This document shows positions 4,207 through 62,667 of a stretch of 64,000 nt of DNA, piece after piece (the first letter of the stretch is position 1; each line of letters begins with the position of its first letter). The notes under the pieces are model-generated. The model searched no databases. It worked only from the letters and a program-made list of their open reading frames with translations, and was not told the origin of the DNA. The translations under genes were made by a program, and so were the position numbers. This stretch comes from Escherichia coli. Its GTDB lineage: Bacteria; Pseudomonadota; Gammaproteobacteria; Enterobacterales; Enterobacteriaceae. The DNA is taken from assembly GCF_003334785.1 (NCBI RefSeq), contig NZ_QOWV01000013.1; one strand, written 5' to 3'.

Positions 4207-4215
4207 AACCCATGC

Positions 4216-4237
4216 CGGATGCGCTAGCATCCGGCAT
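4216..4237. terminator. Perfect palindrome gccggatgcgctagcatccggc between convergent trmA and yijD; likely bidirectional terminator hairpin
   Basis: 22-nt inverted repeat seen directly in the 39-bp trmA/yijD gap. Confidence 0.5.
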
Positions 4238-4245
4238 AATACCGA

Positions 4246-5252: not shown

Positions 5253-5585
5253 CACGATGTCTGAATCCTTGCCAAAAGTACTGCTGGCACTATACCAGAG
5301 AATGAACATACTGGATTGCTCCAGTATTGTGAATGAACGGTAACGCAATAAAACATATTTACTGCAATTCTTTGGCCGGTTCTTTTACGTACAGCGGAAA
5401 CCTGCCGCTTAAACGGAGAGTATCGTCGATAAAAATCCAATAAAACGTCAGGGCAAAAGTAAGAAACAGACAAAGCAAAGGCCGCTCAGGATATAGCCAG
5501 ATAAATGACGGGGATCAATTGGCTTACCCGCGATAAAATGTTACCATTCTGTTGCTTTTATGTATAAGAACAGGTAAGCCCTACC

Positions 5586-6986
5586 ATGCCACATTCCTAC
5601 GATTACGATGCCATAGTAATAGGTTCCGGCCCCGGCGGCGAAGGCGCTGCAATGGGCCTGGTTAAGCAAGGTGCGCGCGTCGCAGTTATCGAGCGTTATC
5701 AAAATGTTGGCGGCGGTTGCACCCACTGGGGCACCATCCCGTCGAAAGCTCTCCGTCACGCCGTCAGCCGCATTATAGAATTCAATCAAAACCCACTTTA
5801 CAGCGACCATTCCCGACTGCTCCGCTCTTCTTTTGCCGATATCCTTAACCATGCCGATAACGTGATTAATCAACAAACGCGCATGCGTCAGGGATTTTAC
5901 GAACGTAATCACTGTGAAATATTGCAGGGAAACGCTCGCTTTGTTGACGAGCATACGTTGGCGCTGGATTGCCCGGACGGCAGCGTTGAAACACTAACCG
6001 CTGAAAAATTTGTTATTGCCTGCGGCTCTCGTCCATATCATCCAACAGATGTTGATTTCACCCATCCACGCATTTACGACAGCGACTCAATTCTCAGCAT
6101 GCACCACGAACCGCGCCATGTACTTATCTATGGTGCTGGAGTGATCGGCTGTGAATATGCGTCGATCTTCCGCGGTATGGATGTAAAAGTGGATCTGATC
6201 AACACCCGCGATCGCCTGCTGGCATTTCTCGATCAAGAGATGTCAGATTCTCTCTCCTATCACTTCTGGAACAGTGGCGTAGTGATTCGTCACAACGAAG
6301 AGTACGAGAAGATCGAAGGCTGTGACGATGGTGTGATCATGCATCTGAAGTCGGGTAAAAAACTGAAAGCTGACTGCCTGCTCTATGCCAACGGTCGCAC
6401 CGGTAATACCGATTCGCTGGCGTTACAGAACATTGGGCTAGAAACTGACAGCCGCGGACAGCTGAAGGTCAACAGCATGTATCAGACCGCACAGCCACAC
6501 GTTTACGCGGTGGGCGACGTGATTGGTTATCCGAGCCTGGCGTCGGCGGCCTATGACCAGGGGCGCATTGCCGCGCAGGCGCTGGTAAAAGGCGAAGCCA
6601 CCGCACATCTGATTGAAGATATCCCTACCGGTATTTACACCATCCCGGAAATCAGCTCTGTGGGCAAAACCGAACAGCAGCTGACCGCAATGAAAGTGCC
6701 ATATGAAGTGGGCCGCGCCCAGTTTAAACATCTGGCACGCGCACAAATCGTCGGCATGAACGTGGGCACGCTGAAAATTTTGTTCCATCGGGAAACAAAA
6801 GAGATTCTGGGTATTCACTGCTTTGGCGAGCGCGCTGCCGAAATTATTCATATCGGTCAGGCGATTATGGAACAGAAAGGTGGCGGCAACACTATTGAGT
6901 ACTTCGTCAACACCACCTTTAACTACCCGACGATGGCGGAAGCCTATCGGGTAGCTGCGTTAAACGGTTTAAACCGCCTGTTTTAA
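5586..6986 (+). CDS. sthA: Soluble pyridine nucleotide transhydrogenase (466 aa)
   Basis: [25 protein letters not shown].. FAD/NAD Rossmann motif, 466 aa; 3' end overlaps oxyR 3' end by 18 nt. Confidence 0.95.
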
Positions 6987-7886
6987 AACTTTATCGAAAT
7001 GGCCATCCATTCTTGCGCGGATGGCCTCTGCCAGCTGCTCATAGCGGCTGCGCAGCGGTGAGCCAGGACGATAAACCAGGCCAATAGTGCGGCGTGGTTC
7101 CGGCTTAATGCACGGCAGATAAACAACCCCATCGCGTTTGCGCTCCGGCGGCACAGCCAGCGCTGGCAGTAAAGTGATCCCGCTACCTGCCGCCACCATG
7201 TTGCGCAGAGTTTCCAGGCTGGTCGCGCGGAAGTGTGTATCTTCATCCGCCCCGGCTTCAAAACAGAAACCCATTGCCTGATCGCGCAAACAGTGACCAT
7301 CTTCCAGCATCAGCAGTTTTTCCCCTGCCAGATCGGCCATCGGTACGCATTCGCGGTTCGCCCACGGGTGATCTTCATAGATAGCCAGCAACATTGGCTC
7401 ATCAAACAACGGCACTTCAATGAATGCTTCGCTCTCTTTCACCAGCGCGAGGATCACGCAATCGAGTTTGCCGCTGTCCAGTTGCGCCAGTAACTGGTGG
7501 GTCTGTGCTTCATGCAGATACATTTCCAGCTTTGGAAAGGTCTGGTGCAGCATAGGGATAATATGCGGTAGCAGGTACGGTCCAACTGTGGGAATCAAAC
7601 CAATGTGCAGCGGTCCGGACATCGTCTCGCCCTGCTGGCTTGCCATCTCTTTAAGGACTTTCACCTCACGCAGCACGGTACGCGCCTGATCCACCAGCAG
7701 CATTCCCGCCTGGGTGAACAACACTTTACGGCTGGTCCGCTCCAGCAACATCACGCCCAGCTCATCTTCCAGCTTACGAATTTGCCCGCTAAGCGTCGGC
7801 TGGCTAACGTGGCAGGAATCTGCCGCACGCCGAAAATGGCGGTGTTCAGCCAATGCCACCAGGTACTCAAGATCACGAATATTCAT
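6969..7886 (-). CDS. oxyR: LysR-family hydrogen peroxide-responsive regulator OxyR (305 aa)
   Basis: ORF contains [44 protein letters not shown]; annotated start internal to the 315-aa ORF. Confidence 0.95.
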
Positions 7887-7981
7887 TATCCATCCTCCAT
7901 CGCCACGATAGTTCATGGCGATAGGTAGAATAGCAATGAACGATTATCCCTATCAAGCATTCTGACTGATAATTGCTCACA

Positions 7982-8094
7982 GAAACGGAGCGGCACCTCT
8001 TTTAACCCTTGAAGTCACTGCCCGTTTCGAGAGTTTCTCAACTCGAATAACTAAAGCCAACGTGAACTTTTGCGGATCTCCAGGATCCGCTTTT
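7982..8094 (+). ncRNA. oxyS: OxyS small regulatory RNA (about 109 nt) with intrinsic terminator
   Basis: Sequence GAAACGGAGCGGCACCTCTTTTAACCCTTGAAGTCACTGCCCGTTTCGAGAGTTTCTCAACTCGAATAACTAAAGCCAACGTGAACTTTTGCGGATCTCCAGGATCCGC followed by a T8 run; divergent from oxyR. Confidence 0.9.
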
Positions 8095-8152
8095 TTTTGC
8101 CATAAAAAAGCCCGGCGATAAGCCAGGCTCAAATTTATACATATAAATGTTC

Positions 8153-9526
8153 TTACCCTAACCGAGCCTGCGCAAAAGCAATCGCCTGCGCCACCTGCTG
8201 CGGTGAGACGCCGCCTTTTGCCGCACGCTTGTCGAGGCACGATTGCAGCGACAGAATCGGATAGACATCTTCGTCAATCACCTGACTGAATTTCTGCAAC
8301 TCACTGAGCGGCAGATCTTCCAGCGGTTTGCCCTGACGAATGGCTTCCACCACCGCTTCACCAACAATATGGTGCGCCTCGCGGAACGGTACGCCTTTCG
8401 CCACCAGATAATCCGCCAGTTCGGTGGCGTTGGCGTAACCCTGCTGAGCCGCTTCCTGGCAACGTGGACGTTTCACCTGAATGCCGTCCAGCACCAGCGC
8501 CGCCATATGCAGGCAGTCCAGCCAGGTATCGAGCGCGTCGAACAGACCTTCTTTGTCTTCCTGCATATCTTTGTTGTAAGCCAGCGGCAAACCTTTCAGC
8601 GTCATCATCATGCCGGTTAACGCCCCCTGCACCCGGCCGCATTTACCGCGAATCAGCTCCAGCGCATCCGGGTTTTTCTTCTGCGGCATTAATGATGAAC
8701 CGGAAGTCACGCGGTCAGAAAGCTCCACAAACCCCGCTTCGCCGGTGTTAAAGAAAATCAGATCTTCAGCAAAACGCGACAGATGCACCATGCCGATAGC
8801 GGCAGCAGAAAGCAGTTCCAACACATGGTCACGGTCAGAAACGCTGTCGAGACTGTTACGGGTCGCCGAAGCAAAGCCCAGCCAGCCTGCTAACTGTTCA
8901 CGGTCGATTTCATAGGCCGTTCCCGCCAGCGCGCCACAGCCTAGCGGGCTGACATCCAGACGCTTAAGCGCATCCTGCAAACGGCTTTCATCACGCGCCA
9001 GCATCTCAACATAGGCCAGGCACCAGTGCGCGAACGTCACCGGCTGGGCGCGTTGCAGGTGAGTGTAACCTGGCATTACCGCGTCCTGATTGTTTTGTGC
9101 GGTTTCCACCAGCGCCGATTGCAGCTGCCGGTTAGCCGTCAGTAACTCGCTAACGGTATCTTTGCACCACAGTTTCAGGTCAGTCGCTACCTGATCATTA
9201 CGGCTACGCCCGGTATGCAGCTTTTTGCCTAACTGGCCCACTTTGTCGATCAGTTTGCCTTCCACCCAGCTATGGATATCTTCGGCGTCGCTTTCAAGGA
9301 TTTGTTGTGGCCTGGCGCGAACATCTTCCAGCAACACGTTCAGCGCCTCTTCCAGTTGCGCCTGCTCTTCTGCGGTTAACACGCCTACCGTGACCAGGGC
9401 TTTGGACCAGGCCACAGAGCCAACAATATCCTGCTCCGCCAGACGGTAATCAAAGCGCAGTGAGTCGTTGAATTGTTTGAACCGTTGATCTGCTGCCTGG
9501 GTAAAACGCCCGCCCCAAAGTGCCAT
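8153..9526 (-). CDS. argH: Argininosuccinate lyase (457 aa)
   Basis: [37 protein letters not shown].., 457 aa; last gene of argCBH. Confidence 0.95.
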
Positions 9527-9586
9527 AACTCTGTTTCCTTATTTTGAAATTCAATGCCGGAAAGCTGCGCCTCCGGCCAACAAAAC

Positions 9587-10363
9587 TTAAGCTAAAATCC
9601 GCGTACCCATCGGCATACCGTTAAACAGTGCCGGAAGCTGCTCCGCATGACGCCAGGAGGCGATATCTACCGGACGGCCCAGCGTGCGGGCCGCATCCAG
9701 CGCCGCGTTCACTTTCACTATCATGCCGTCAGTAATAATGCCCTGCTCAATCAGTTGTTCTGCTTTCGCGGCGGTCATTTCGGCAATGCGTTGCCCTTTG
9801 CCGTCGAGAATGCCGCTGACGTCGGAGAGCAAAATCAGATCCGCGCCCAGCGTTGCCGCCAGCGCCGTTGCCGCCTGGTCGGCATTGACGTTCATCAGTT
9901 GCCCTTCGTCTGTTACGCCAATGGAGCTGACCACCGGCAGATAACCGTTCTCCAGCAAGGAGTTGATAAGCTTAGGCGAACCTGGCTGCGCCAGTCCAAC
10001 ATGACCTAACTCTTCATCAAGCTGGGTCACTTTGACGCTGTCGCCGTCACCGAGAAACAAACCTACGGCCGCAATCTGATGTTTCTTCGCCCATGCCAAC
10101 AGGGTTTTATTTGCCGTTCCCGCCAGTGCTCCGGTGATAATGTCTATCTGATCAGCAGGCGTCACCCGCAGGCCGTTTTTCTTTTTCACCGGCAGATTCA
10201 GCCCTTTCATCAGCTCATCCACCACGCAACCGCCGCCGTGCACAATCACCAGCGGACGCTGATGTGACTCACGATAATTCACCAGTGCGCTAAACAGACG
10301 TTCCAGCGCCTCTTCACTATCCAGCAGTACGCCGCCCAGTTTGATAATTAATGGATTCATCAT
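9587..10363 (-). CDS. argB: Acetylglutamate kinase (258 aa)
   Basis: ORF contains [24 protein letters not shown]..; annotated start internal to the 269-aa ORF. Confidence 0.93.
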
Positions 10364-10370
10364 TGCACCC

Positions 10371-11375
10371 TTAAATAAGAGACTGCGTTTCCGCATAGCC
10401 GAAACGAATATTGGCGCACTGTACCGCTTGTGCCGCCGCGCCTTTCAGTAAGTTGTCTTCGGTCGCCACAATAATCAGATGCTCGCCCTGAACGGCAAAC
10501 CCGATATCGCAAAATGGCAGCCCAACGACATTTTTCAGCGCCGGAACGCCTTTGTCATACAGCCGCACCAGCGGTTTATGGGCATACGCCTGCTGTAACA
10601 CTTGCGCGACTTGCGCCTGGGTCACACCCGATTTCAGGCGGCAGGTAATGGTTTCGAGAATGCCGCGCGGGAAATTGCCCAGATGTGGGGTGAAGATAAC
10701 GTCAGCACCGAGGTGTGTGGCGATCTCTGGTTGATGGCGATGAGTAAAGACGCCATACGGTTGCAGGCTAACTTCACAAAAGCTGTTTGAAATGGCCGCT
10801 TTACGCCCTGCACCGCTCACGCCGCTGGTGGCGTTGATCACCGGCCACTGATTGAGGTCAAGAAGATCGGCATCAATCAACGGTTTCAGCGCCAGCTGTG
10901 CCGCCGTCGGATAACAGCCCGGCACCGCAATCAAATTCGCTTCTTTTAATTTATTACCGCACCACTCCGCCAGACCGTAGGCTGCCTGTTCCAACAGTTC
11001 CGGGTATTGATGGGTAAAGCCGTAATATTTTTCATAGAAGGTGGCGTCGTTAACACGAAACGCGCCGGAAAGGTCGAACACCACGCAGCCCGCTTCAAGA
11101 AACTGCGGCGCTAAATCGTGGCTAACTTCATGGGCGGTGGCGAGAAACACTACGTCCACCCCTGGGCTAAACTCGCTGATATCCGACATCGGCTGCAACG
11201 GCAGATCAACGATGCCTTTTAGCTGCGGATGCAAATCGGAGATTAACTTTCCCGCATCATTGCTTTGCGCTGAAACAGTCAAAGCGGTTATGTTCATATG
11301 CGGATGGCGATTTACATAGGTCACTAGCTCTGCGCCAGCGTAGCCGCTGGCACCCACAATCAGCGTATTCAACAT
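10371..11375 (-). CDS. argC: N-acetyl-gamma-glutamyl-phosphate reductase (334 aa)
   Basis: [43 protein letters not shown].., 334 aa. Confidence 0.95.
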
Positions 11376-11465
11376 CGGGGCTATTCACCTTCTTATGTCT
11401 GGTTGCCAGGTTAAACGTAAAACATTCACCTTACGGCTGGTGGGTTTTATTACGCTCAACGTTAG

Positions 11466-11505
11466 TGTATTTTTATTCATAAATACTGCATGAATATTGA
11501 TACTA
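11466..11505. promoter_or_regulatory. argE/argCBH divergent control region with paired ArgR operator (ARG boxes)
   Basis: tgtatttttattcataaatactgcatgaatattgatac: two adjacent AT-rich TNTGAAT..ATTCA-like half-site palindromes between the divergent argE and argC starts. Confidence 0.6.
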
Positions 11506-11528
11506 TCATGACCAGAGGTGTGTCAACA

Positions 11529-12680
11529 ATGAAAAACAAATTACCGCCATTTATCGAGATTTACCGCGCTCTGATTGCCACACCTTCAATAAGCGCCACG
11601 GAAGAGGCACTCGATCAAAGCAATGCAGATTTAATCACTCTGCTGGCGGACTGGTTTAAAGATTTGGGCTTCAATGTGGAAGTGCAGCCTGTTCCAGGAA
11701 CTCGCAACAAATTCAATATGCTGGCAAGTATCGGACAGGGGGCTGGCGGCTTGTTGCTGGCGGGGCATACCGATACGGTGCCATTTGATGACGGTCGCTG
11801 GACGCGCGATCCGTTTACACTGACGGAGCATGACGGCAAGCTTTACGGCTTAGGCACCGCCGACATGAAAGGCTTTTTTGCGTTTATCCTTGATGCGCTA
11901 CGCGATGTCGACGTCACGAAACTGAAAAAACCGCTCTACATTCTGGCGACTGCTGATGAAGAAACCAGTATGGCCGGAGCGCGTTATTTTGCCGAAACTA
12001 CCGCCCTGCGCCCGGATTGCGCCATCATTGGCGAACCGACGTCACTACAACCGGTACGCGCACATAAAGGTCATATCTCTAACGCCATCCGTATTCAGGG
12101 CCAGTCGGGGCACTCCAGCGATCCAGCACGCGGAGTTAACGCTATCGAACTAATGCACGACGCCATCGGGCATATTTTGCAATTGCGCGATAACCTGAAA
12201 GAACGTTATCACTACGAAGCGTTTACCGTGCCATACCCTACGCTCAACCTCGGGCATATTCACGGTGGCGACGCTTCTAACCGTATTTGCGCTTGCTGTG
12301 AGTTGCATATGGATATTCGTCCGCTGCCTGGCATGACACTCAATGAACTTAATGGTTTGCTCAACGATGCATTGGCTCCGGTGAGCGAACGCTGGCCGGG
12401 TCGTCTGACGGTCGACGAGCTGCATCCGCCGATCCCTGGCTATGAATGCCCACCGAATCATCAACTGGTTGAAGTGGTTGAGAAATTGCTCGGAGCAAAA
12501 ACCGAAGTGGTGAACTACTGTACCGAAGCGCCGTTTATTCAAACGTTATGCCCGACGCTGGTGTTGGGGCCTGGCTCAATTAATCAGGCTCATCAACCTG
12601 ATGAATATCTGGAAACACGGTTTATCAAGCCCACCCGCGAACTGATAACCCAGGTAATTCACCATTTTTGCTGGCATTAA
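11529..12680 (+). CDS. argE: Acetylornithine deacetylase (383 aa)
   Basis: ORF contains [48 protein letters not shown]; M20 peptidase family. Confidence 0.93.
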
Positions 12681-12683
12681 AAC

Positions 12684-12907
12684 GTAGGCCGGATAAGGCG
12701 CTCGCGCCGCATCCGGCGCTGTTGCCAAACTCCAGTGCCGCAATAATGTCGGATGCGATGCTTGCGCATCTTATCCGACCTACAGTGACTCAAACGATGC
12801 CCAACCGTAGGCCGGATAAGGCGCTCGCGCCGCATCCGGCACTGTTGCCAAACTCCAGTGCCGCAATAATGTCGGATGCGATACTTGCGCATCTTATCCG
12901 ACCTACA
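12684..12907. repeat. Two tandem REP/BIME units (about 101 bp each, period 123 bp) in the argE-ppc spacer
   Basis: gtaggccggataaggcgctcgcgccgcatccggc...atcttatccgacctaca occurs twice almost identically (12684..12784 and 12807..12907). Confidence 0.85.
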
Positions 12908-13154
12908 CCTTTGGTGTTACTTGGGGCGATTTTTTAACATTTCCATAAGTTACGCTTATTTAAAGCGTCGTGAATTTAATGACGTAAATTCCTGCTATTT
13001 ATTCGTTTGCTGAAGCGATTTCGCAGCATTTGACGTCACCGCTTTTACGTGGCTTTATAAAAGACGACGAAAAGCAAAGCCCGAGCATATTCGCGCCAAT
13101 GCGACGTGAAGGATACAGGGCTATCAAACGATAAGATGGGGTGTCTGGGGTAAT

Positions 13155-15806
13155 ATGAACGAACAATATTCCGCATTGCGTAGTAATGTCAGTATGCTCG
13201 GCAAAGTGCTGGGAGAAACCATCAAGGATGCGTTGGGAGAACACATTCTTGAACGCGTAGAAACTATCCGTAAGTTGTCGAAATCTTCACGCGCTGGCAA
13301 TGATGCTAACCGCCAGGAGTTGCTCACCACCTTACAAAATTTGTCGAACGACGAGCTGCTGCCCGTTGCGCGTGCGTTTAGTCAGTTCCTGAACCTGGCC
13401 AACACCGCCGAGCAATACCACAGCATTTCGCCGAAAGGCGAAGCTGCCAGCAACCCGGAAGTGATCGCCCGCACCCTGCGTAAACTGAAAAACCAGCCGG
13501 AACTGAGCGAAGACACCATCAAAAAAGCAGTGGAATCGCTGTCGCTGGAACTGGTCCTCACGGCTCACCCAACCGAAATTACCCGTCGTACACTGATCCA
13601 CAAAATGGTGGAAGTGAACGCCTGTTTAAAACAGCTCGATAACAAAGATATCGCTGACTACGAACACAACCAGCTGATGCGTCGCCTGCGCCAGTTGATC
13701 GCCCAGTCATGGCATACCGATGAAATCCGTAAGCTGCGTCCAAGCCCGGTAGATGAAGCCAAATGGGGCTTTGCCGTAGTGGAAAACAGCCTGTGGCAAG
13801 GCGTACCAAATTACCTGCGCGAACTGAACGAACAACTGGAAGAGAACCTCGGCTACAAACTGCCCGTCGAATTTGTTCCGGTCCGTTTTACTTCGTGGAT
13901 GGGCGGCGACCGCGACGGCAACCCGAACGTCACTGCCGATATCACCCGCCACGTCCTGCTACTCAGCCGCTGGAAAGCCACCGATTTGTTCCTGAAAGAT
14001 ATTCAGGTGCTGGTTTCTGAACTGTCGATGGTTGAAGCGACCCCTGAACTGCTGGCGCTGGTTGGCGAAGAAGGTGCCGCAGAACCGTATCGCTATCTGA
14101 TGAAAAACCTGCGTTCTCGCCTGATGGCGACACAGGCATGGCTGGAAGCGCGCCTGAAAGGCGAAGAACTGCCAAAACCAGAAGGCCTGCTGACACAAAA
14201 CGAAGAACTGTGGGAACCGCTCTACGCTTGCTACCAGTCACTTCAGGCGTGTGGCATGGGTATTATCGCCAACGGCGATCTGCTCGACACCCTGCGCCGC
14301 GTGAAATGTTTCGGCGTACCGCTGGTCCGTATTGATATCCGTCAGGAGAGCACGCGTCATACCGAAGCGCTGGGCGAGCTGACCCGCTACCTCGGTATCG
14401 GCGACTACGAAAGCTGGTCAGAGGCCGACAAACAAGCGTTCCTGATCCGCGAACTGAACTCCAAACGTCCGCTTCTGCCGCGCAACTGGCAACCAAGCGC
14501 CGAAACGCGCGAAGTGCTCGATACCTGCCAGGTGATTGCCGAAGCACCGCAAGGCTCCATTGCCGCCTACGTGATCTCGATGGCGAAAACGCCGTCCGAC
14601 GTACTGGCTGTCCACCTGCTGCTGAAAGAAGCGGGTATCGGGTTTGCGATGCCGGTTGCTCCGCTGTTTGAAACCCTCGATGATCTGAACAACGCCAACG
14701 ATGTCATGACCCAGCTGCTCAATATTGACTGGTATCGTGGCCTGATTCAGGGCAAACAGATGGTGATGATTGGCTATTCCGACTCAGCAAAAGATGCGGG
14801 AGTGATGGCAGCTTCCTGGGCGCAATATCAGGCACAGGATGCATTAATCAAAACCTGCGAAAAAGCGGGTATTGAGCTGACGTTGTTCCACGGTCGCGGC
14901 GGTTCCATTGGTCGCGGCGGCGCACCTGCTCATGCGGCGCTGCTGTCACAACCGCCAGGAAGCCTGAAAGGCGGCCTGCGCGTAACCGAACAGGGCGAGA
15001 TGATCCGCTTTAAATATGGTCTGCCAGAAATCACCGTCAGCAGCCTGTCGCTTTATACCGGGGCGATTCTGGAAGCCAACCTGCTGCCACCGCCGGAGCC
15101 GAAAGAGAGCTGGCGTCGCATTATGGATGAACTGTCAGTCATCTCCTGCGATGTCTACCGCGGCTACGTACGTGAAAACAAAGATTTTGTGCCTTACTTC
15201 CGCTCCGCTACGCCGGAACAAGAACTGGGCAAACTGCCGTTGGGTTCACGTCCGGCGAAACGTCGCCCAACCGGCGGCGTCGAGTCACTACGCGCCATTC
15301 CGTGGATCTTCGCCTGGACGCAAAACCGTCTGATGCTCCCCGCCTGGCTGGGTGCAGGTACGGCGCTGCAAAAAGTGGTCGAAGACGGCAAACAGAGCGA
15401 GCTGGAGGCTATGTGCCGCGATTGGCCATTCTTCTCGACGCGTCTCGGCATGCTGGAGATGGTCTTCGCCAAAGCAGACCTGTGGCTGGCGGAATACTAT
15501 GACCAACGCCTGGTAGACAAAGCACTGTGGCCGTTAGGTAAAGAGTTACGCAACCTGCAAGAAGAAGACATCAAAGTGGTGCTGGCGATTGCCAACGATT
15601 CCCATCTGATGGCCGATCTGCCGTGGATTGCAGAGTCTATTCAGCTACGGAATATTTACACCGACCCGCTGAACGTATTGCAGGCCGAGTTGCTGCACCG
15701 CTCCCGCCAGGCAGAAAAAGAAGGCCAGGAACCGGATCCTCGCGTCGAACAAGCGTTAATGGTCACTATTGCCGGGATTGCGGCAGGTATGCGTAATACC
15801 GGCTAA
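13155..15806 (+). CDS. ppc: Phosphoenolpyruvate carboxylase (883 aa)
   Basis: [29 protein letters not shown].. ..GMRNTG, 883 aa. Confidence 0.96.
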
Positions 15807-17935: not shown

Positions 17936-18787
17936 ATGTATCACGACGTCAGCTATCTGCTCTCCCGCCTGATCAACGGCCCGCTGTCCCTGCGCCAGAT
18001 TTACTTTGCCAGCAGTAACGGCCCGGTGCCCGATCTTGCGTATCAGGTCGATTTTCCACGGCTGGAAATTGTGCTGGAAGGTGAGTTTGTTGATACCGGC
18101 GCTGGAGCAACGTTAGTTCCCGGCGATGTGCTGTACGTTCCTGCTGGTGGCTGGAATTTTCCACAATGGCAAGCCCCCGCTACTACCTTTAGCGTGCTGT
18201 TTGGCAAACAGCAACTCGGCTTCAGCGTCGTGCAATGGGATGGCAAACAATATCAAAATCTGGCGAAGCAACACGTCGCCCGACGCGGCCCACGCATAGG
18301 TTCTTTTCTGCTACAAACGCTCAATGAAATGCAAATGCAGCCGCAGGAGCAGCAAACGGCAAGGCTTATCGTCGCCAGCCTGCTTAGCCACTGCCGCGAT
18401 TTGCTTGGCAGCCAAATCCAGACCGCCTCACGCAGCCAGGCACTATTTGAAGCTATTCGCGATTATATCGACGAACGCTATGCCTCCGCGCTTACCCGCG
18501 AATCTGTTGCACAGGCGTTTTATATTTCGCCAAATTACCTCTCGCACCTGTTTCAAAAAACGGGGGCCATTGGTTTTAACGAATACCTGAATCACACGCG
18601 ACTGGAGCACGCTAAGACGTTATTGAAAGGCTATGACCTGAAGGTAAAAGAAGTGGCGCACGCCTGCGGCTTTGTCGACAGCAACTACTTCTGCCGTCTG
18701 TTTCGTAAAAACACCGAACGCTCGCCGTCGGAATATCGCCGGCAGTACCACAGCCAACTGACAGAAAAACCGACTACTCCAGAATAA
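17936..18787 (+). CDS. yijO: AraC-family transcriptional regulator (283 aa)
   Basis: 283-aa ORF with C-terminal AraC HTH (..YISPNYLSHLFQKTGAIGFNEYLNHTRLEHAKTLL..). Confidence 0.88.
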   Translation: MYHDVSYLLSRLINGPLSLRQIYFASSNGPVPDLAYQVDFPRLEIVLEGEFVDTGAGATLVPGDVLYVPAGGWNFPQWQAPATTFSVLFGKQQLGFSVVQWDGKQYQNLAKQHVARRGPRIGSFLLQTLNEMQMQPQEQQTARLIVASLLSHCRDLLGSQIQTASRSQALFEAIRDYIDERYASALTRESVAQAFYISPNYLSHLFQKTGAIGFNEYLNHTRLEHAKTLLKGYDLKVKEVAHACGFVDSNYFCRLFRKNTERSPSEYRRQYHSQLTEKPTTPE

Positions 18788-19115
18788 GATGGGTTTGCTG
18801 CGGCGCAGAAAGCACTTTGCGCACCGCGCTCATTACCCGCTGCGGCTCACGCAGGAATGCGTAGATGCTGCATTGCACATAGCGGCAATGTTCAAATCGC
18901 TCGGCACCGGCAAGCTCGATATCCGTAATCAACAGAGCAACATCCGCCCGGCGGATATCCTCATCCGCTAAACGATTCTCCGTTCCCAGCGCGCCCTGAG
19001 TTTCAATGCTGACTCCCCACTTCTCTAACAGGCACAACTTTTCCAGCCGTTCCGCCGCCATATAAGTATGCGCCACGCCGCTTACGCAGGCGGTTACTGC
19101 CACCAGGTATGCCAT
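18774..19115 (-). CDS. frwD: PTS fructose-like EIIB component (113 aa)
   Basis: ORF contains MAYLVAVTACVSGVAHTYMAAERLEKL (PTS IIB Cys motif); annotated start internal to the 134-aa ORF. Confidence 0.88.
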   Translation of the reverse strand: MAYLVAVTACVSGVAHTYMAAERLEKLCLLEKWGVSIETQGALGTENRLADEDIRRADVALLITDIELAGAERFEHCRYVQCSIYAFLREPQRVMSAVRKVLSAPQQTHLILE

Positions 19116-19116
19116 T

Positions 19117-19995
19117 TTAACCTCCCACGGTAACCTGAAGTCCGGCCCGTTCTGCCATTTCGCGCATCGTTGCCACATCAGCTGACGACGGCGCAGGCAC
19201 CTCTTTCATCGACCATGTTTTCCCCAGCAGGCGGTATTTCGGTTCGCCGTACTGATGAAACGGTAACAGATGGATCTGCCTGATATTCAGCGGGATCAGT
19301 ACATCCAGCGCCTGCTGCATATTCTCCCGGCTGAGCGTGAAACCAGGGATCAGCGGTAAACGCGGGATCACGTTGACGCCCTCACTCACCAGCAAACGCA
19401 GATTCTCCAGCACGCGTGGCAGGTTCATCTTCACCACATCCCGCGCCTGAGTCGCGTCCATAATTTTTAAATCGAACAACACTTCATCGCACAATTTCGC
19501 CAGCGGTAATAGCTTGCTGGCTGGTGCGTCTCCGGCAGTTTCAATGGCGCATGACACACCCCACAGCCGCAGTCGCTGTAAAAAACGGGTAGCAAACTCC
19601 GCCTGCATTAACACTTCGCCGCCAGAAAGCGTGACGCCGCCGCCGGACGTGCGAAAGAAAATGTCATCTTTCATCACTTCCCGTTCCAGAGCGTCAAGGC
19701 TGATATCGCGACCAATCCGTTCAAACGCCCCGGAGGGGCATTCATCCGCATCACGCAAACATTTCGCACAGTGCAGACATTTCGCCTCTCTGCGTACCGT
19801 CTGGATTTTGCCGGAGATCGACTCCGGATTAGCACACCACGGGCAAAGATGCGGACAGCCTTTAAAAAAGACCACCGTACGAATGCCCTCGCCGTCATTC
19901 AGTGAATAACGCTGAATGTTGAAAATGCGCGCCACATCATCGCGGCGCGTTTCCACAACGTTACAGCTGATGCGCTGTCCGGCGGATGATGTCAT
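19117..19995 (-). CDS. pflC: Glycyl-radical enzyme activase, radical SAM (292 aa)
   Basis: ORF contains MTSSAGQRISCNVVETRRDDVARIFNIQRYSLNDGEGIRTVVFFKGCPHLCPWCANPES (CxxxCxxC radical-SAM motif). Confidence 0.9.
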   Translation of the reverse strand: MTSSAGQRISCNVVETRRDDVARIFNIQRYSLNDGEGIRTVVFFKGCPHLCPWCANPESISGKIQTVRREAKCLHCAKCLRDADECPSGAFERIGRDISLDALEREVMKDDIFFRTSGGGVTLSGGEVLMQAEFATRFLQRLRLWGVSCAIETAGDAPASKLLPLAKLCDEVLFDLKIMDATQARDVVKMNLPRVLENLRLLVSEGVNVIPRLPLIPGFTLSRENMQQALDVLIPLNIRQIHLLPFHQYGEPKYRLLGKTWSMKEVPAPSSADVATMREMAERAGLQVTVGG

Positions 19996-22258
19996 CCTGG
20001 ATCTCCTTCGACAGTTCGACAAAGAAGGCGCTGTATCCGGCAACGCGCACCACCAGCCCGGCATAATCTTGTGGGCGCTGTTGCGCTTCCCGCAACGTGT
20101 CGGCGTTCACCACGTTAAACTGAATATGTTGTAACTTAAGCTGGGTAAACGCCCGTAAGAAGTCGGCCAGTTTGCGTAATCCTGCTTCACCTTCCAGGGT
20201 CGCCGGAGTGAATTTCACGTTCAGCAACGTACCGTTAGACAGCAGCGTGTTATCGAGCTTACTGACTGACTTCAGTACCGCTGTTGGCCCTTGTGCGTCC
20301 TGGCCCAGCATGGGTGACAAGCCGCCGTCTGCCAGCTGTTCTCCGGCAAAACGACCGTCTGGCGTCGCGCCAACCACCGATCCCAACGGGACGTGAGCAG
20401 AAACGGTATACGATCCCGGCGTGAAGTAGCCGCCGCGCGGGTTCTGGTATTTTTCCACTTCTTTGCAGTAGTGGCGCAACAGTTCGGCGCTGATGTTATC
20501 CACCTCGTCGATATCGTTACCGTATTTCTCGAAGCGGTTAATTAAGCGAGCGCGGACTTTTTCGCCTTCTGGCGTTGCGAAGTTGGCTTTTAATACCGAC
20601 AGCAATTCGTCAAAACTTAAACGCTGTTGCTCAAAAACCATCCCTTTCAACGCATGGAGAGAATCGCTCAGGTTGGCGATACCGATCCCCTGTACGCCGG
20701 AGAAGTTATAACGCGCGCCGCCATCGGTAATATCGCGGCCTTTTTCCAGACAATCGCTGATAAACGATGAGAGCAGCGGTACAGGTGCCCAGTCGCGATG
20801 GCCGATATCACAAATATTGCTGCCCTCAACCATCAGGGTGATGTAGTGGCTGATCTTGGCGCGGATCTGCTCCAGTAAACCTTCATAAGTCAGCGCAGCA
20901 TTGCCTTCATTTTCATGCAGGCAGATTTCCATCACTTTCAGCAGATTAAACATCGCGATGTCATGCAAGCCGTAGGTTCTGCCGGGAATAGATAATTCCA
21001 CACAGCCCACTACGGAATAGTCGCGCGCATCTTCCAGCGAAACGCCACGGTTGAGGAACGCTGGCACCACCACTTCATCGTTAAAGATTTGCGGAATACC
21101 GGTGCCGAAGCGAATGGTTTCGGCGGTTTTCATCAGGAACGGCGTGTCGATCAAGGCGTTAGTGCGCACGCCGAGGTTCGGTTGCGGTAATTGCACGCTT
21201 TGATAGGCGTCAAGGCAAAGGAACGAAAGCACGTTCACCGCGCTACGTCCGTTCTCGGTTAACCCGCCGAGCAGTGCGGTATAGCCGGTCGGGAAACCGG
21301 CGAAATAACGCGCGCTACTGGTGGAGCGCAACAGCACGATGTCGTTGCATTTCACCCATAAAGATTCGAGCAGTTCTTTCAGGAACGCCGCATCTTCGCC
21401 CTGGGTTAATGATGTCTAATAGAACGGCAACATATACTGGTCGAAGCGCCCCAACGATAGCGAACTGGCGTTGGATTCGTATTGCAGAATGATGTTCATG
21501 TACCAGAATAACTGGCACGCCTGCCAGAACGTCTGCGGCTTATGTTGCGCGTTATGGCGGGAGATCTCTGCAATAGTCAGCAGCTCTTCGCGACGCTGGG
21601 CATCTGTGCAGTTTGCCGCCATCGTTTCCGCCAGTTCGGCGTAACGCAAAATGTGTTTCTGCGAGGCTTCCAGCAGTAACAACGCGGCCTGATAAAAGTG
21701 ATTCTCCGGCTGTTGCTGACAATGTTGCTGCATCTGTGCCACCAGCTCACCCAGCCCGTGATTCAACAGGCGTGGGTAATCAATAATAATGTGCCCCTGG
21801 CCTTTATCCGTCTGGTTGATGCTGAAAATCTGCGTGTTGGTCGCGGCTTTTACTTCATCTGTCATCTGCCCGTTGATGAAATCTTTCATCGAACGTTTTT
21901 CCCAGTACGGGAACAACTCTTCACGGTAGATACGTTTATCTTCTTCGCTGATAGCAAAGCGGTCCTGCGGACGCGTCGGGAATTGATCCAGCTCTTTCAG
22001 CAGCCAGTAAGGGTCCATTTCCGGCGACATAATCCCGGCGCGCGGTTTTACGGTGCGGTTACCGGCAATCAGTTCTTCATCACGAATCGAAATTTCAACA
22101 TGTTCAAGGATATACGCTGTTGCTTTCGCCCGGCGCAATATCACCGGTTCGCCTTCGGTTTGCCGATGGCTGGCGGTATAAAGCAGCGCCCGCTCCAGCG
22201 AGATTTCACGGGTATTGGCAAACAGTGCAGTTTTGAGGCGAGAGATACGATTCGTCAT
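19961..22258 (-). pseudogene. pflD: Pyruvate formate-lyase-like glycyl radical enzyme PflD, interrupted by an in-frame TAG at 21416..21418 (280-codon N-terminal ORF, 464-codon remainder including the glycyl-radical C-terminus)
   Basis: ORFs 21416..22258 (MTNRISRLKTALFANTREISLERALLYTASHRQ..) and 19961..21355 (..RVAGYSAFFVELSKEIQDDIIRRTAHQL) share one frame; the 20 intervening codons read TSLTQGEDAAFLKELLESLW with no other stop; total 766 codons equals intact 765-aa PflD. Confidence 0.8.
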
Positions 22259-22308
22259 GAGGAACTCCTGTGGGAAAGCGAACCCGCCCTTGCGAGCGGG
22301 AGAAGAAC

Positions 22309-22629
22309 TTAAGCGGTTTGCGCCAGGTGAGCTTCAATTTTGCTCATAATGGCGTCAGCACGTTTTACTGCATCGCTGATGTTGACGCGCACGATGGTCT
22401 TGCCAGCAAAACGCTCTTCAAACTTGATGCCGATATCTTTGGTCAGAATCACCATATCAGCGCTCGCCACATCTTCCGCAGTCAGTTCATTTTCCAGACC
22501 AATTGACCCCTGGGTTTCTACTTTCACTTCCCAGCCTTTCGCTTTCGCGGCACTTTCCAGCGCCTCTGCTGCCATATAGGTATGGGCAACACCTGAAGGA
22601 CATGCGGTTACTGCAATAATTTTCGTCAT
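22309..22629 (-). CDS. frwB: PTS fructose-like EIIB component (106 aa)
   Basis: MTKIIAVTACPSGVAHTYMAAEALESAAKAKGWEVKVETQG.., 106 aa. Confidence 0.9.
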   Translation of the reverse strand: MTKIIAVTACPSGVAHTYMAAEALESAAKAKGWEVKVETQGSIGLENELTAEDVASADMVILTKDIGIKFEERFAGKTIVRVNISDAVKRADAIMSKIEAHLAQTA

Positions 22630-22643
22630 GGCTCGTTCCTCAA

Positions 22644-23723
22644 TTAATTAATTTCAAAATCCAAATCCAGGTCGTCTTCTTTTTCATCAGTCGAAGACCC
22701 ATTTTTACGCGCCAGACTTTTCAGCACGTTCACACAAACAGCCGTCACCACTGCTCCGACAGCCACTGCTGCGATATAACCCAGCTTGCCTTCAACCACC
22801 GGCAGCACAATCAGACCACCCCAGCCTGCATAGCACTGCGCACCGACCAGCGCCGCAGTTACTGCACCACAAACTGAACCGACCATGATGGAAGGAATGA
22901 CACGCAGCGGATCGGCAGCGGCGAAAGGAATCGCCCCTTCAGTAACGCCAACACAGCCCATCACCAGTGTCGCTTTGCCGGTTTCGCGCTCTTCTGCGGA
23001 GAAATTTTTACGACCAATCAGCGTCGCCAGCCCCATCCCCAGCGGCGGGATACAAATACCCACGGCAGCGATGGCCACCACGGTATAAACACCCTGAGCA
23101 ACGCAAATCAGCATGAAGGCATAGGCCACTTTGTTAACCGGACCGCCCATATCGAACGCCAGCATCAGACCCATGATCACCGCCAGCATAACAATGCTGC
23201 CCTGCTGCATCCCCTGAAGCCACTGAGTCAGGCTGTTGGTCAACGCCCCTACAGGCTCGCCCAAGCCCCACATCATGATGCCTGCGGTAATCAGTGTGCC
23301 GACGATAGGAATAATGAAGATAGGCATCACCGAGCGCAGAACTTTATGCACCGGAATTTTCTTCAGGTAATGCACCACGATGCCGCCGATAATCCCGGCG
23401 ATCAGTGCACCAAAGAAGCCCGCACCAAAGCTGTTACCAACCCAGGCACCGATAGCGCACGGAGCCAGCGCAGAACGCTCTGCAATGGAATAACCGATGT
23501 ACGCTGCGAGGAAAGGCACCATCAGCGTCAAGCCCGCAACGCCGATATCAAACAGTTTTTTCAGATTTGGATCGGCTACGGCATCCGGCACTGCGCCTTT
23601 GCCATACAACATGACGGAAACCGCCAGCAAAATACCGCCCGATACCACGAAGGGAATCATGTGTGAAACGCCCGTCATTAAATGCTGACGGGTATTTTTC
23701 AGGATCTGCACCAACTCATTCAT
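22644..23723 (-). CDS. frwC: PTS fructose-like EIIC permease (359 aa)
   Basis: 359-aa polytopic membrane ORF MNELVQILKNTRQHLMTGVSHMIPFVVSGGILLAV.. Confidence 0.9.
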   Translation of the reverse strand: MNELVQILKNTRQHLMTGVSHMIPFVVSGGILLAVSVMLYGKGAVPDAVADPNLKKLFDIGVAGLTLMVPFLAAYIGYSIAERSALAPCAIGAWVGNSFGAGFFGALIAGIIGGIVVHYLKKIPVHKVLRSVMPIFIIPIVGTLITAGIMMWGLGEPVGALTNSLTQWLQGMQQGSIVMLAVIMGLMLAFDMGGPVNKVAYAFMLICVAQGVYTVVAIAAVGICIPPLGMGLATLIGRKNFSAEERETGKATLVMGCVGVTEGAIPFAAADPLRVIPSIMVGSVCGAVTAALVGAQCYAGWGGLIVLPVVEGKLGYIAAVAVGAVVTAVCVNVLKSLARKNGSSTDEKEDDLDLDFEIN

Positions 23724-24031
23724 AAGCTGCTCCCGGGCTTGCGAAAGCCCATGTCCATATTTTTGATGGAGGAAACAATAGGCAATCGCAGGCGGAGCAA
23801 ACAGTGGATAAAAAGGCCATTTACTGGACTTTTGTAATATCAGTACAAAAATGCGATCCGCCTCATAACTTGCGATAAACCGGAAGCATGCCGCAAAACA
23901 GCGTCTTGTGAGACGCGTCGCAAATTGACGGTTACATTACATTTGTCCAGCTTTTGGCAGATTTGTCACATGGCAGGCCGTTGCCGTGCGCTCTTATCCT
24001 GTAAACAGAAAACCGTACCGGGAGAGAGGCA

Positions 24032-26533
24032 ATGGCCCTGATTGTGGAATTTATTTGTGAGCTACCTAACGGCGTACATGCGCGTCCGGCAAGCCACGTT
24101 GAAACGCTGTGTAATACTTTTTCATCACAAATTGAGTGGCATAACCTGCGCACTGACCGCAAGGGCAACGCCAAAAGCGCCCTTGCGCTGATTGGCACCG
24201 ATACGCTGGCGGGCGATAACTGCCAGTTACTGATTTCCGGGGCCGACGAACAGGAAGCGCACCAGCGTTTAAGCCAATGGCTGCGCGATGAATTCCCCCA
24301 CTGCGATGCGCCGCTGGCGGAAGTTAAATCTGACGAACTGGAACCACTGCCGGTTTCACTGACCAATCTGAATCCGCAAATTATCCGCGCCCGCACCGTG
24401 TGCAGCGGTAGTGCAGGCGGCATTCTGACGCCGATCTCTTCTTTAGATCTCAATGCGCTGGGTAATCTTCCCGCAGCCAAAGGCGTTGACGCCGAGCAAT
24501 CCGCACTGGAAAACGGCCTGACGCTGGTACTGAAAAACATTGAGTTTCGTCTGCTGGATAGCGACGGTGCTACCAGCGCGATTCTGGAAGCTCACCGATC
24601 CCTGGCTGGCGATACTTCCCTGCGCGAACATTTACTGGCAGGCGTCAGCGCCGGATTAAGCTGCGCCGAAGCAATTGTTGCCAGCGCGAATCACTTTTGC
24701 GAAGAGTTTTCCCGTTCCAGCAGCAGCTACCTGCAAGAACGTGCCCTGGACGTACGCGACGTCTGCTTCCAGTTACTCCAGCAAATCTACGGTGAGCAAC
24801 GCTTCCCGGCACCGGGCAAACTGACGCAGCCCGCCATTTGTATGGCTGATGAACTGACCCCCAGCCAGTTCCTCGAACTGGATAAAAATCACCTCAAAGG
24901 ATTGTTGCTCAAAAGCGGCGGCACCACCTCACATACGGTGATCCTTGCCCGTTCGTTCAACATTCCAACGCTGGTTGGTGTGGATATTGATGCCCTTACT
25001 CCGTGGCAGCAACAAACGATTTATATCGACGGCAACGCCGGGGCGATTGTGGTTGAGCCAGGGGAAGCCGTAGCTCGTTATTATCAGCAAGAAGCCCGCG
25101 TACAGGACGCCCTGCGTGAGCAACAGCGTGTCTGGCTGACCCAACAAGCCCGTACCGCTGACGGTATCCGCATTGAAATTGCCGCTAACATCGCTCACTC
25201 CGTGGAAGCGCAGGCCGCATTCGGCAATGGTGCGGAAGGCGTTGGTTTGTTCCGCACTGAAATGCTCTATATGGATCGCACCAGCGCACCGGGCGAAAGC
25301 GAGTTGTACAACATTTTTTGTCAGGCGCTGGAATCCGCCAACGGACGCAGCATTATTGTGCGCACTATGGACATTGGCGGCGACAAACCCGTTGATTATC
25401 TGAACATTCCCGCAGAGGCAAACCCGTTCCTCGGTTATCGCGCCGTGCGTATTTATGAAGAGTACGCGTCGTTGTTTACCACGCAGCTACGGTCGATCCT
25501 CCGCGCCTCCGCTCACGGCAGCCTGAAAATCATGATCCCGATGATCTCCTCAATGGAAGAGATCTTATGGGTGAAAGAAAAACTGGCGGAAGCCAAACAG
25601 CAACTACGTAACGAACACATTCCGTTTGATGAGAAAATCCAGCTCGGCATCATGCTGGAAGTGCCGTCGGTGATGTTCATCATCGATCAATGCTGCGAAG
25701 AGATTGATTTCTTTAGTATTGGTAGTAATGACCTGACGCAGTATCTGCTGGCGGTGGATCGCGATAACGCTAAGGTTACTCGTCACTACAACAGCCTGAA
25801 TCCGGCATTCTTGCGGGCGCTCGATTACGCCGTGCAAGCGGTGCATCGCCAGGGCAAATGGATTGGTCTGTGCGGTGAGCTGGGAGCGAAAGGTTCCGTG
25901 CTGCCGTTGCTGGTCGGCTTAGGGCTGGATGAACTCAGCATGAGCGCACCATCAATTCCGGCGGCGAAAGCTCGGATGGCGCAACTTGATAGCCGTGAGT
26001 GCCGCAAGTTGCTCAACCAGGCAATGGCCTGCCGTACTTCGCTGGAAGTGGAACACCTGCTGGCGCAATTCCGCATGACCCAACAAGACGCACCGCTGGT
26101 CACCGCCGAGTGCATCACACTGGAAAGCGACTGGCGCAGCAAAGAAGAAGTGCTCAAAGGCATGACCGATAACCTGCTGCTGGCGGGCCGCTGCCGCTAT
26201 CCGCGTAAACTGGAAGCCGACTTGTGGGCGCGCGAGGCCGTTTTCTCTACCGGTCTGGGCTTTAGTTTTGCCATTCCACACAGCAAATCAGAACACATTG
26301 AGCAATCCACCATCAGCGTGGCGCGTCTGCAAGCGCCGGTGCGCTGGGGCGATGATGAAGCGCAATTCATCATTATGTTAACCCTGAACAAACACGCTGC
26401 GGGCGATCAGCATATGCGCATTTTCTCGCGCCTCGCTCGCCGCATCATGCACGAAGAATTCCGTAACGCGCTGGTTAACGCCGCCTCTGCCGACGCTATC
26501 GCCAGCCTGCTGCAACATGAACTGGAACTGTAA
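24032..26533 (+). CDS. ptsA: Multiphosphoryl transfer protein, HPr-EI-EIIA fusion (833 aa)
   Basis: [26 protein letters not shown] (HPr-like) followed by an Enzyme I-like PEP-utilising domain and a C-terminal IIA-like domain; divergent from frwC. Confidence 0.9.
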
Positions 26534-26544
26534 AAGGAAACATC

Positions 26545-27207
26545 ATGGAACTGTATCTGGACACCGCTAACGTCGCAGAAGTCGAACGTCTGGCACGCAT
26601 ATTCCCCATTGCCGGGGTGACAACTAACCCGAGCATTATCGCTGCCAGCAAGGAGTCCATATGGGAAGTGCTGCCGCGTCTGCAAAAAGCGATTGGTGAT
26701 GAGGGCATTCTGTTTGCTCAGACCATGAGCCGCGACGCGCAGGGGATGGTGGAAGAAGCGAAGCGCCTGCGCGACGCTATTCCGGGTATTGTGGTGAAAA
26801 TCCCGGTGACTTCCGAAGGTCTGGCAGCAATTAAAATACTGAAAAAAGAGGGTATTACTACACTTGGCACTGCTGTATATAGCGCCGCACAAGGGTTATT
26901 AGCCGCACTGGCAGGGGCAAAATACGTTGCTCCGTATGTTAACCGCGTAGATGCCCAGGGCGGAGACGGCATTCGTACGGTTCAGGAGCTGCAAACGCTG
27001 TTAGAAATGCACGCGCCAGAAAGCATGGTGCTGGCAGCCAGCTTTAAAACGCCGCGTCAGGCGCTGGACTGTTTACTGGCAGGATGTGAATCCATCACCC
27101 TGCCCTTAGATGTAGCGCAACAAATGCTCAACACCCCTGCGGTAGAGTCAGCTATAGAGAAGTTCGAACACGACTGGAATGCCGCATTTGGCACTACTCA
27201 TCTCTAA
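26545..27207 (+). CDS. fsaB: Fructose-6-phosphate aldolase 2 (220 aa)
   Basis: [37 protein letters not shown].., transaldolase-like, 220 aa. Confidence 0.93.
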
Positions 27208-27217
27208 AGGAGCAATT

Positions 27218-28321
27218 ATGGACCGCATTATTCAATCACCGGGTAAATACATCCAGGGCGCTGATGTGATTAATCGTCTGGGCGAATACCTGAAGCCGCT
27301 GGCAGAACGCTGGTTAGTGGTGGGTGACAAATTTGTTTTAGGTTTTGCTCAATCCACTGTCGAGAAAAGCTTTAAAGATGCTGGACTGGTAGTAGAAATT
27401 GCGCCGTTTGGCGGTGAATGTTCGCAAAATGAGATCGACCGTCTGCGTGGCATCGCGGAGACTGCGCAGTGTGGCGCAATTCTCGGTATCGGTGGCGGAA
27501 AAACCCTCGATACTGCCAAAGCACTGGCACATTTCATGGGTGTTCCGGTAGCGATCGCACCGACTATCGCCTCTACCGATGCACCGTGCAGCGCATTGTC
27601 TGTTATCTACACCGATGAGGGTGAGTTTGACCGCTATCTGCTGTTGCCAAATAACCCGAATATGGTCATTGTCGACACCAAAATCGTCGCTGGCGCACCT
27701 GCACGTCTGTTAGCGGCGGGTATCGGCGATGCGCTGGCAACCTGGTTTGAAGCGCGTGCCTGCTCTCGTAGCGGCGCGACCACCATGGCGGGCGGCAAGT
27801 GCACCCAGGCTGCGCTGGCACTGGCTGAACTGTGCTACAACACCCTGCTGGAAGAAGGCGAAAAAGCGATGCTTGCTGCCGAACAGCATGTAGTGACTCC
27901 GGCGCTGGAGCGCGTGATTGAAGCGAACACCTATTTGAGCGGTGTTGGTTTTGAAAGTGGTGGTCTGGCTGCGGCGCACGCAGTGCATAACGGCCTGACC
28001 GCTATCCCGGACGCGCATCACTATTATCACGGTGAAAAAGTGGCATTCGGTACGCTGACGCAGCTGGTTCTGGAAAATGCGCCGGTGGAGGAAATCGAAA
28101 CCGTAGCTGCCCTTAGCCATGCGGTAGGTTTGCCAATAACTCTCGCTCAACTGGATATTAAAGAAGATGTCCCGGCGAAAATGCGAATTGTGGCAGAAGC
28201 GGCATGTGCAGAAGGTGAAACCATTCACAACATGCCTGGCGGCGCGACGCCAGATCAGGTTTACGCCGCTCTGCTGGTAGCCGACCAGTACGGTCAGCGT
28301 TTCCTGCAAGAGTGGGAATAA
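27218..28321 (+). CDS. gldA: Glycerol dehydrogenase (367 aa)
   Basis: ORF contains [41 protein letters not shown]..; iron-containing alcohol dehydrogenase family. Confidence 0.93.
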
Positions 28322-38204: not shown

Positions 38205-38302
38205 GCCTGATGCGCTACGCTTATCAGGCCTACGTCATATTGCAATTTATTGAATTTGCACGAACTTGTAGGCCGGATAAGGCGTTCACGCCGCATCCGG
38301 CA
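38205..38302. repeat. RIP/BIME-1-type element in the metJ-yiiX spacer
   Basis: gcctgatgcgctacgcttatcaggcctacg..tgcaatttattgaatttgca..gtaggccggataaggcgttcacgccgcatccggca; near-identical to the copy at 28366..28465. Confidence 0.8.
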
Positions 38303-62651: not shown

Positions 62652-62667
62652 ACTTCGCATTTGCAGG

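Follow-up and report, generated by a model that had tools for sequence, protein, structure and literature searches.

A question raised by the frw locus of Escherichia coli is which compound its phosphotransferase system (PTS) takes up, and which reaction is carried out by PflD, the glycyl radical enzyme encoded among the PTS genes. The locus was considered here as it stands at positions 18774–27207, that is 8.4 kb of E. coli chromosome, of a 64,000-nt stretch of contig NZ_QOWV01000013.1 (assembly GCF_003334785.1), hereafter called the window. A preliminary description of this DNA had termed the locus cryptic and the least understood part of the window, with the substrate of the PTS and the PflD reaction not established, and had suggested an uptake route feeding an anaerobic radical C–C cleavage. 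Very probably the locus enables E. coli to use 1,5-anhydromannitol anaerobically and is the branch of "anhydroglycolysis" specific to this polyol, with pflD broken by a natural null allele in the strain of the window. It is no discovery, being the already known frw-pflDC/ptsA-fsaB-gldA system, which was first described in the 1990s and whose functional gap was closed in 2024; that work has made the words "cryptic" and "least understood" obsolete.

Phosphorylation of 1,5-anhydroglucitol and 1,5-anhydromannitol by a PTS was summarized in a review, together with the conversion of the respective 6-phosphates by YbiW and PflD to 1-deoxyfructose-6-phosphate in a glycyl-radical reaction under strict anaerobiosis (PMC12441222). 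By this route E. coli, like many gut bacteria, is able to grow on the two polyols (PMC12441222, citing Ma et al., JACS 2024, 146:26187). The view that neither the substrate of the PTS nor the reaction of PflD was established is therefore out of date, since the review gives the reaction and a structure of the same protein has been deposited: the uninterrupted PflD, with CAG at codon 281, is 100% identical to residues 17–781 of PDB entry 8yjo, which is named "Probable dehydratase PflD". The PDB further contains two YbiW structures, 8id7 and 8yjn.

The locus of K-12 MG1655 (b3945–b3953) has the same genes in the same order and orientation. DNA identity to K-12 MG1655 is 99.965% over 17 kb (6 single-nucleotide polymorphisms, SNPs), and the proteins FrwD, PflC, FrwB, PtsA, FsaB, GldA and YijO are identical in both. 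Only two protein differences were found, FrwC A252T and PflD Q281*, and pflD carries in addition one silent change. Because of this near-identity, what is known of the K-12 locus applies directly to the window, with one difference: codon 281 of pflD is TAG instead of CAG, so that the radical enzyme is predicted to be absent from the strain of the window. The preliminary description was right in placing an amber codon in pflD (Table 1).

The enzyme class of PflD was examined by aligning it with YbiW and PflB from K-12. Cys419 of PflD aligns with the invariant cysteine of the other two enzymes, and the glycyl motif RV(A/S)GY is kept in all three, as RVAGY with Gly741 in PflD, 3' of the codon-281 stop of the window. 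The cysteine loop reads Gly418-Cys419-Val420-Glu421 in PflD and GCIE in YbiW, whereas PflB shows a Cys418-Cys419 pair without the glutamate. The Cys-x-Glu loop is of the eliminase type, as in glycerol dehydratase and choline trimethylamine (TMA)-lyase. The GCVE loop of PflD, as opposed to the Cys-Cys pair of PflB, thus argues for eliminase-type C–O chemistry and not for radical C–C cleavage. The active-site comparison that the preliminary description had proposed therefore turned out in favour of the eliminase type when made with PflB and YbiW; of the route drawn there, the general idea of a PTS feeding an anaerobic radical step, followed by FsaB and GldA, holds, and the radical C–C cleavage does not.

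In agreement with this, the PflD frame has the features of the glycyl radical enzyme superfamily (PF02901 and PF01228), namely the glycyl motif, the catalytic cysteine and an adjacent radical S-adenosylmethionine (SAM) activase, as well as the feature of the eliminase/dehydratase class, a single catalytic cysteine followed two residues later by a glutamate (GCxE). The activase PflC contains the CX3CX2C motif (CPHLCPWC, residues 47–54) and passes the models NF007483 and TIGR02494. Against TIGR01774, the PFL2/glycerol dehydratase subfamily, PflD scored 1356 bits (cut-off 678), and against TIGR01255, the pyruvate formate-lyase (PFL) equivalog, 122 bits (cut-off 994), which leaves it outside the latter. 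Apart from PflD itself and a close homologue, the best matches among solved structures of known function were glycerol dehydratase, propanediol dehydratase and choline TMA-lyase (E values from 1e-195 to 1e-128); PFL was a distant match (E = 5.6e-33). In a protein search clustered at 50% identity all the PflD orthologues fell in one cluster and no distant synteny was obtained; the next clusters (47% and 43% identity) represented different subfamilies of glycyl radical enzymes, and their contigs were short or unrelated.

Among known systems, the closest is YbiW-YbiY-FsaA, the E. coli branch for 1,5-anhydroglucitol-6-phosphate. YbiW is a paralogous glycyl radical enzyme that shares with PflD the GC(I/V)E loop, the RVAGY motif and the product, 1-deoxy-fructose-6-phosphate (PMC12441222), and an activase and an Fsa aldolase adjoin ybiW as they adjoin pflD. 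It differs in its substrate, the glucitol epimer, in being 39% identical to PflD, and in that no PTS genes flank ybiW. PflD has the fold of the glycyl-radical eliminases, which include B12-independent glycerol dehydratase (1r8w), propanediol dehydratase (5i2a) and the choline TMA-lyase CutC, and these enzymes have in common with it a catalytic cysteine followed two residues on by a glutamate. The substrate of PflD, in contrast, is a phosphorylated cyclic polyol. The outcome of the PflD reaction in the work of Ma et al. is reportedly a ring-opening C–O cleavage and not the loss of water or of an amine. PflB/PflA share with PflD/PflC the superfamily, the glycyl radical motif and the radical-SAM activase partner, but differ in chemistry and in the cysteine pair.

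It is hardly credible, given these results, that PflD is a second pyruvate/2-ketobutyrate formate-lyase performing radical C–C cleavage on a keto acid that comes from a PTS sugar. Such a role is suggested by the PFL-like fold and glycyl radical domain and by the name "formate C-acetyltransferase" in RefSeq and NCBIfam. Against it stand the identity of PflD to PflB of 24%, the GCVE loop (GCIE in YbiW) without adjacent cysteines, the dehydratases and lyases among the best structural matches, the "dehydratase" in the name of 8yjo and the reported reaction, which is the ring opening of anhydromannitol-6-phosphate (PMC12441222). Judged from its sequence, the database name of PflD is a misnomer.

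Beyond the radical step, Ma et al. are said to have found that FsaA and FsaB split 1-deoxy-fructose-6-phosphate into glyceraldehyde-3-phosphate and hydroxyacetone, the C–C cleavage of the pathway thus being the later aldolase step, and that GldA reduces hydroxyacetone to 1,2-propanediol. These reported steps fit the NCBIfam name of GldA, bifunctional L-1,2-propanediol dehydrogenase, and the known ptsA-fsaB-gldA operon. In the proposed mechanism, phosphate from phosphoenolpyruvate (PEP) would pass through the enzyme I (EI), HPr and EIIA domains of PtsA to the EIIB proteins FrwB and/or FrwD, and the FrwC permease would import 1,5-anhydromannitol as its 6-phosphate. The radical would be placed on Gly741 of PflD by PflC, and Cys419 and Glu421 would open the ring of the anhydro-sugar by C–O cleavage to give 1-deoxy-fructose-6-phosphate. 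FsaB would then yield glyceraldehyde-3-phosphate and hydroxyacetone, and GldA, with NADH, would reduce the hydroxyacetone to 1,2-propanediol. In the strain of the window the radical step of this pathway would fail unless an amber suppressor is present.

The proteins required for this scheme are encoded in the window. All five PTS functions are found: EIIC (FrwC), EIIB (FrwB and FrwD) and, in PtsA, HPr, EI and a type 2 EIIA. The domains of PtsA in Pfam are PTS-HPr (residues 7–84), the N-terminal, mobile and C-terminal domains of the PEP-utilizing enzymes (123–653) and PTS_EIIA_2 (690–829). Histidine-containing motifs were located in HPr (NGVHARPAS, from residue 13), EI (GGTTSHT, from 296) and EIIA (AIPHS, from 747), and FrwB and FrwD have in common the Cys10 motif TACxSGVAHTYMAAE; the histidines and Cys10 are presumably the phospho-acceptor residues. 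FsaB is 70% identical to FsaA, and its Lys85 in IVVKIPV aligns with the lysine in IVVKVPV of FsaA; by its family model score and this Schiff-base lysine FsaB is a class I aldolase of the Fsa/TalC family. The curated NCBIfam cut-off was exceeded by every product of the locus, the model for PtsA being that of the enzyme I domain. The inventory given previously, two EIIB genes, one EIIC gene and a divergent HPr-EI-EIIA fusion, is thus borne out by the NCBIfam models and the order of the Pfam domains. Its limits agree with the ends of frwD and fsaB, and the open reading frames with the RefSeq annotation of the nearest genome; gldA, which had been named as part of the locus, begins beyond them.

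In another reading of the same genes, Frw would be a spare fructose PTS, FsaB and GldA would act on fructose-6-phosphate and dihydroxyacetone, and the glycyl radical enzyme would be an unrelated passenger. FrwB, FrwC, FrwD and the EIIA domain of PtsA do belong to the fructose PTS family. The ptsA-fsaB-gldA operon has been described, with FsaB and GldA contributing to dihydroxyacetone use (PMC6643234). This reading appears very unlikely in view of the position of pflD-pflC between frwB and frwD in four genera, in one of them in a different chromosomal context, which speaks against passengers, and of the published pathway, which joins all the parts (PMC12441222).

The gene order gldA-fsaB-ptsA/frwC-frwB-pflD-pflC-frwD/yijO is kept in Citrobacter and Salmonella. 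In Edwardsiella tarda ATCC 23685 a module fsa-ptsA/frwCB-pflDC-frwD/AraC-family gene occupies positions 4033–13389 of the locus analysed, flanked by uvrC/pgsA and ato-like genes, a foreign context, and without an adjacent gldA. Since the order is maintained in these three genera, in the last of them elsewhere in the chromosome, the genes can be regarded as one functional module. FrwC and PflD of Edwardsiella are 90–91% identical to those of E. coli, and the orthologue of YijO (12529–13389) is 83% identical. An identity of about 90% between the module proteins seems high for this pair of genera. The module is probably a self-contained, horizontally transferred unit. In a word-indexed protein search PflD was at least 89% identical, among the matches listed, in Salmonella, Citrobacter, Enterobacter, Leclercia, Lelliottia, Pluralibacter and Edwardsiella; all matches listed in this search were at or above that identity, so that mid-range orthologues such as PDB 8id0 lie outside it.

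The amber codon stands in the coding-strand context TAT TAG ACA, where K-12 and FDAARGOS_1248, the nearest complete genome, have CAG (Gln). An intact 765-residue PflD frame is accordingly not present in the window. Since Cys419, Glu421 and Gly741 are all encoded 3' of codon 281 and hence missing from the truncated product, and since the in-frame restarts after the stop are only weak GTG/TTG codons at 302–310, the allele is predicted to be null; it may also have a polar effect on pflC and frwD. The comparison set consisted of 5426 complete RefSeq E. coli genomes. A 41-mer with the amber codon at its centre had no match among them, and the corresponding CAG 41-mer, used as control, was found in 2764; the best pflD match in this set still has one mismatch. 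The exact 280-residue product was found on 28 public contigs, from independent NCBI assemblies and Sequence Read Archive (SRA) runs, and the intact sequence on at least 1000. All six loci fetched carried TAG, and over 6.8 kb the contig from ERR271234 matched the window with 100% identity.

From these data it seems highly improbable that PflD is made normally in the strain of the window, either because the TAG is a sequencing or assembly error or because it is read through by a suppressor. A single-base change that is absent from all the complete genomes could be taken for an error, and a glutamine-inserting suppressor would give exactly the product of the CAG codon. Error is refuted by the occurrence of TAG in independent NCBI assemblies and SRA-derived contigs, and amber suppressors are rare in natural E. 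coli isolates. The allele is thus predicted to be a rare, naturally segregating functional null.

The amber carriers share a central tract of 5.2 kb with only 2 differences, and their flanks differ by 27 SNPs in about 1 kb. The shared tract between diverged flanks favours a single origin, followed by spread through recombination, over recurrent mutation, and an independent origin on two backgrounds is less likely for the same reason. A Dcm hotspot was rejected as source of the change, the context TAT-CAG-ACA not being CCWGG. Other truncated forms of PflD were found in public E. coli assemblies, ending after T285 (15 contigs), V355 (27) or L344 (6), or with a frameshift near residue 326 (6); at the two commonest, after 285 and 355, the next codon of the intact gene is a glutamine codon. 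These low-frequency truncations fit the occasional loss of a niche-specific catabolic gene. The several independent nonsense alleles, at codons 281, 286, 356 and others, could also reflect niche-specific selection against the radical step, and not neutral loss.

The truncated forms, including that of the window, together with the control region, in which no consensus promoter was found, could be read as signs of a vestigial, decaying remnant without current function. The 8.4-kb locus was matched in all 5426 complete genomes, so that chance is of no concern for this observation, and was covered to at least 80% in 5394; pflD was present in 5418 and essentially full length in 5397. Two E. coli haplotypes of the locus differ in coding sequence by 25 synonymous and 6 non-synonymous changes. 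These figures, the excess of contigs with intact PflD over those with the amber form, and the conservation of PflD in Salmonella, Citrobacter, Enterobacter, Leclercia, Lelliottia and Edwardsiella indicate that the locus is not vestigial at the species level. A growth phenotype and enzymology have moreover been published (PMC12441222). Decay across related genomes, which the preliminary description had named as the sign of a vestigial locus, fails at the level of the species and holds only for pflD in the strain of the window; at the species level the vestigial reading is already refuted, and as a whole it is extremely unlikely. Two of the matches among the complete genomes were on records classed as plasmids. 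Some 20–30 complete genomes contain only part of pflD; in strain TB354 32% of the gene remains, annotated beside a "PEP-utilizing enzyme" fragment.

Several points weigh against the assignment of the locus to 1,5-anhydromannitol. An older assignment cites PtsA as a component of a putative anaerobic fructose PTS (PMC6643234), and the presence of two EIIB proteins, FrwB and FrwD, is left unexplained by the pathway. We infer that Frw is the anhydromannitol transporter; the review goes no further than attributing the 6-phosphate to a PTS. The steps given to FsaB and GldA are those reportedly found by Ma et al., with the family names as further basis. As to the broken radical step, a glutamine-inserting amber suppressor (supE/glnV44) would restore the wild-type Gln281, and no tRNA gene was found in the window. 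The 1,5-anhydromannitol pathway with a pflD null in this strain nevertheless is, with high probability, the correct account of the locus.

Control of the pathway was considered from yijO and from the region between frwC and ptsA. The 3' end of yijO overlaps that of the convergent frwD by 14 bp, and the gene stays beside the module in Citrobacter, Salmonella and Edwardsiella. YijO has been listed among the transcription factors of function unknown (PMC9308461). Because it is of the AraC family, overlaps frwD convergently and travels with the module, YijO is a candidate regulator of the pathway. Neither YijO nor YijF gave a defence-system match. In the 308-bp control region a simple scan gave no sigma-70 consensus promoter, and no FNR box with up to 2 mismatches and no repeats were found there. 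Blocks conserved with Salmonella, Citrobacter and Edwardsiella lie at about 23775–23790, 23800–23871 and 23932–23975, with a variable stretch at about 23872–23931, a footprint-like pattern. A CRP-like site at 23955–23970 falls inside a conserved block; over the whole window CRP-like matches are not above chance. The best-scoring CRP-like match, at 23907, lies in the non-conserved stretch, and no claim is made for it. YijO could be a dedicated regulator that senses anhydromannitol or its phosphate and acts on the conserved frwC/ptsA blocks, and all the genes together may form a catabolic island that moves horizontally. That the three propositions hold jointly, YijO as regulator, the mobile island and niche selection behind the pflD nonsense alleles, is a tentative idea and rather doubtful.

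The features of the locus and its neighbours are collected in Table 1. The first 35 nt of pflC are also the last 35 nt of pflD, and pflC has its own Shine-Dalgarno sequence (AAGGAG). No known RNA was found inside the locus with Rfam.

Table 1. Features of the frw-pflDC/ptsA-fsaB-gldA locus and adjoining genes, in positions of the window.
Feature	Positions	Strand	Description
yijO	17936–18787	+	AraC-family transcription factor; NCBIfam helix-turn-helix region match and RefSeq annotation; outside 18774–27207
frwD	18774–19115	-	Second PTS EIIB (fructose type), 113 aa; NF007747 equivalog, 224 bits (cut-off 153)
pflC	19117–19995	-	Radical-SAM activase of PflD, 292 aa; NF007483 equivalog, 627 bits (cut-off 326)
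pflD	19961–22258	-	Glycyl radical enzyme, frame of 765 codons with stop at codon 281; CAG version passes NF007437
pflD amber, TAG for CAG (Gln281)	21416–21418	-	Codon 281 of 765
frwB	22309–22629	-	PTS EIIB (fructose type), 106 aa; NF007783 equivalog, 210 bits (cut-off 135)
frwC	22644–23723	-	PTS EIIC (fructose family), 359 aa; NF007787 equivalog, 719 bits (cut-off 426)
frwC/ptsA divergent control region	23724–24031		308 bp
ptsA	24032–26533	+	HPr-EI-EIIA multiphosphoryl transfer protein, 833 aa; passes TIGR01417
fsaB	26545–27207	+	Fructose-6-phosphate aldolase 2; passes TIGR00875 (355 bits, cut-off 246) and NF009296
gldA	27218–28321	+	L-1,2-propanediol/glycerol dehydrogenase, last gene of the ptsA-fsaB-gldA operon; NF047954 equivalog, 753 bits (cut-off 700)

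Between the window and FDAARGOS_1248 there are 7 SNPs over about 51 kb and one 123-bp indel. Besides the amber codon, differences were located at 29124 (YijF V177M), 32608 and 32695 (both katG/metF intergenic), 34660 (MetL H587Y), 50425 (silent, glpK) and 61662 (CpxA I129V). At 12680–12907, between argE and ppc, two tandem copies of a 105-nt unit are spaced 123 bp, and FDAARGOS_1248 is 123 bp shorter here. Rfam elements outside the locus were the btuB cobalamin riboswitch (2803–2992), OxyS (7982–8091), two ES036 copies (38226–38267 and 57620–57661), the L31 leader (39247–39299), a ClpQY promoter element (43911–43968) and naRNA4 (62666–62743).

The label "formate C-acetyltransferase" is still carried by PflD in databases and misled the preliminary description, and GCVE in place of Cys-Cys speaks against this name. 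YijO offers a cheap and testable candidate for the regulator of the pathway. In strains that carry the amber allele no fermentation of 1,5-anhydromannitol is expected, which matters for the production of 1,2-propanediol and for studies of gut metabolism.

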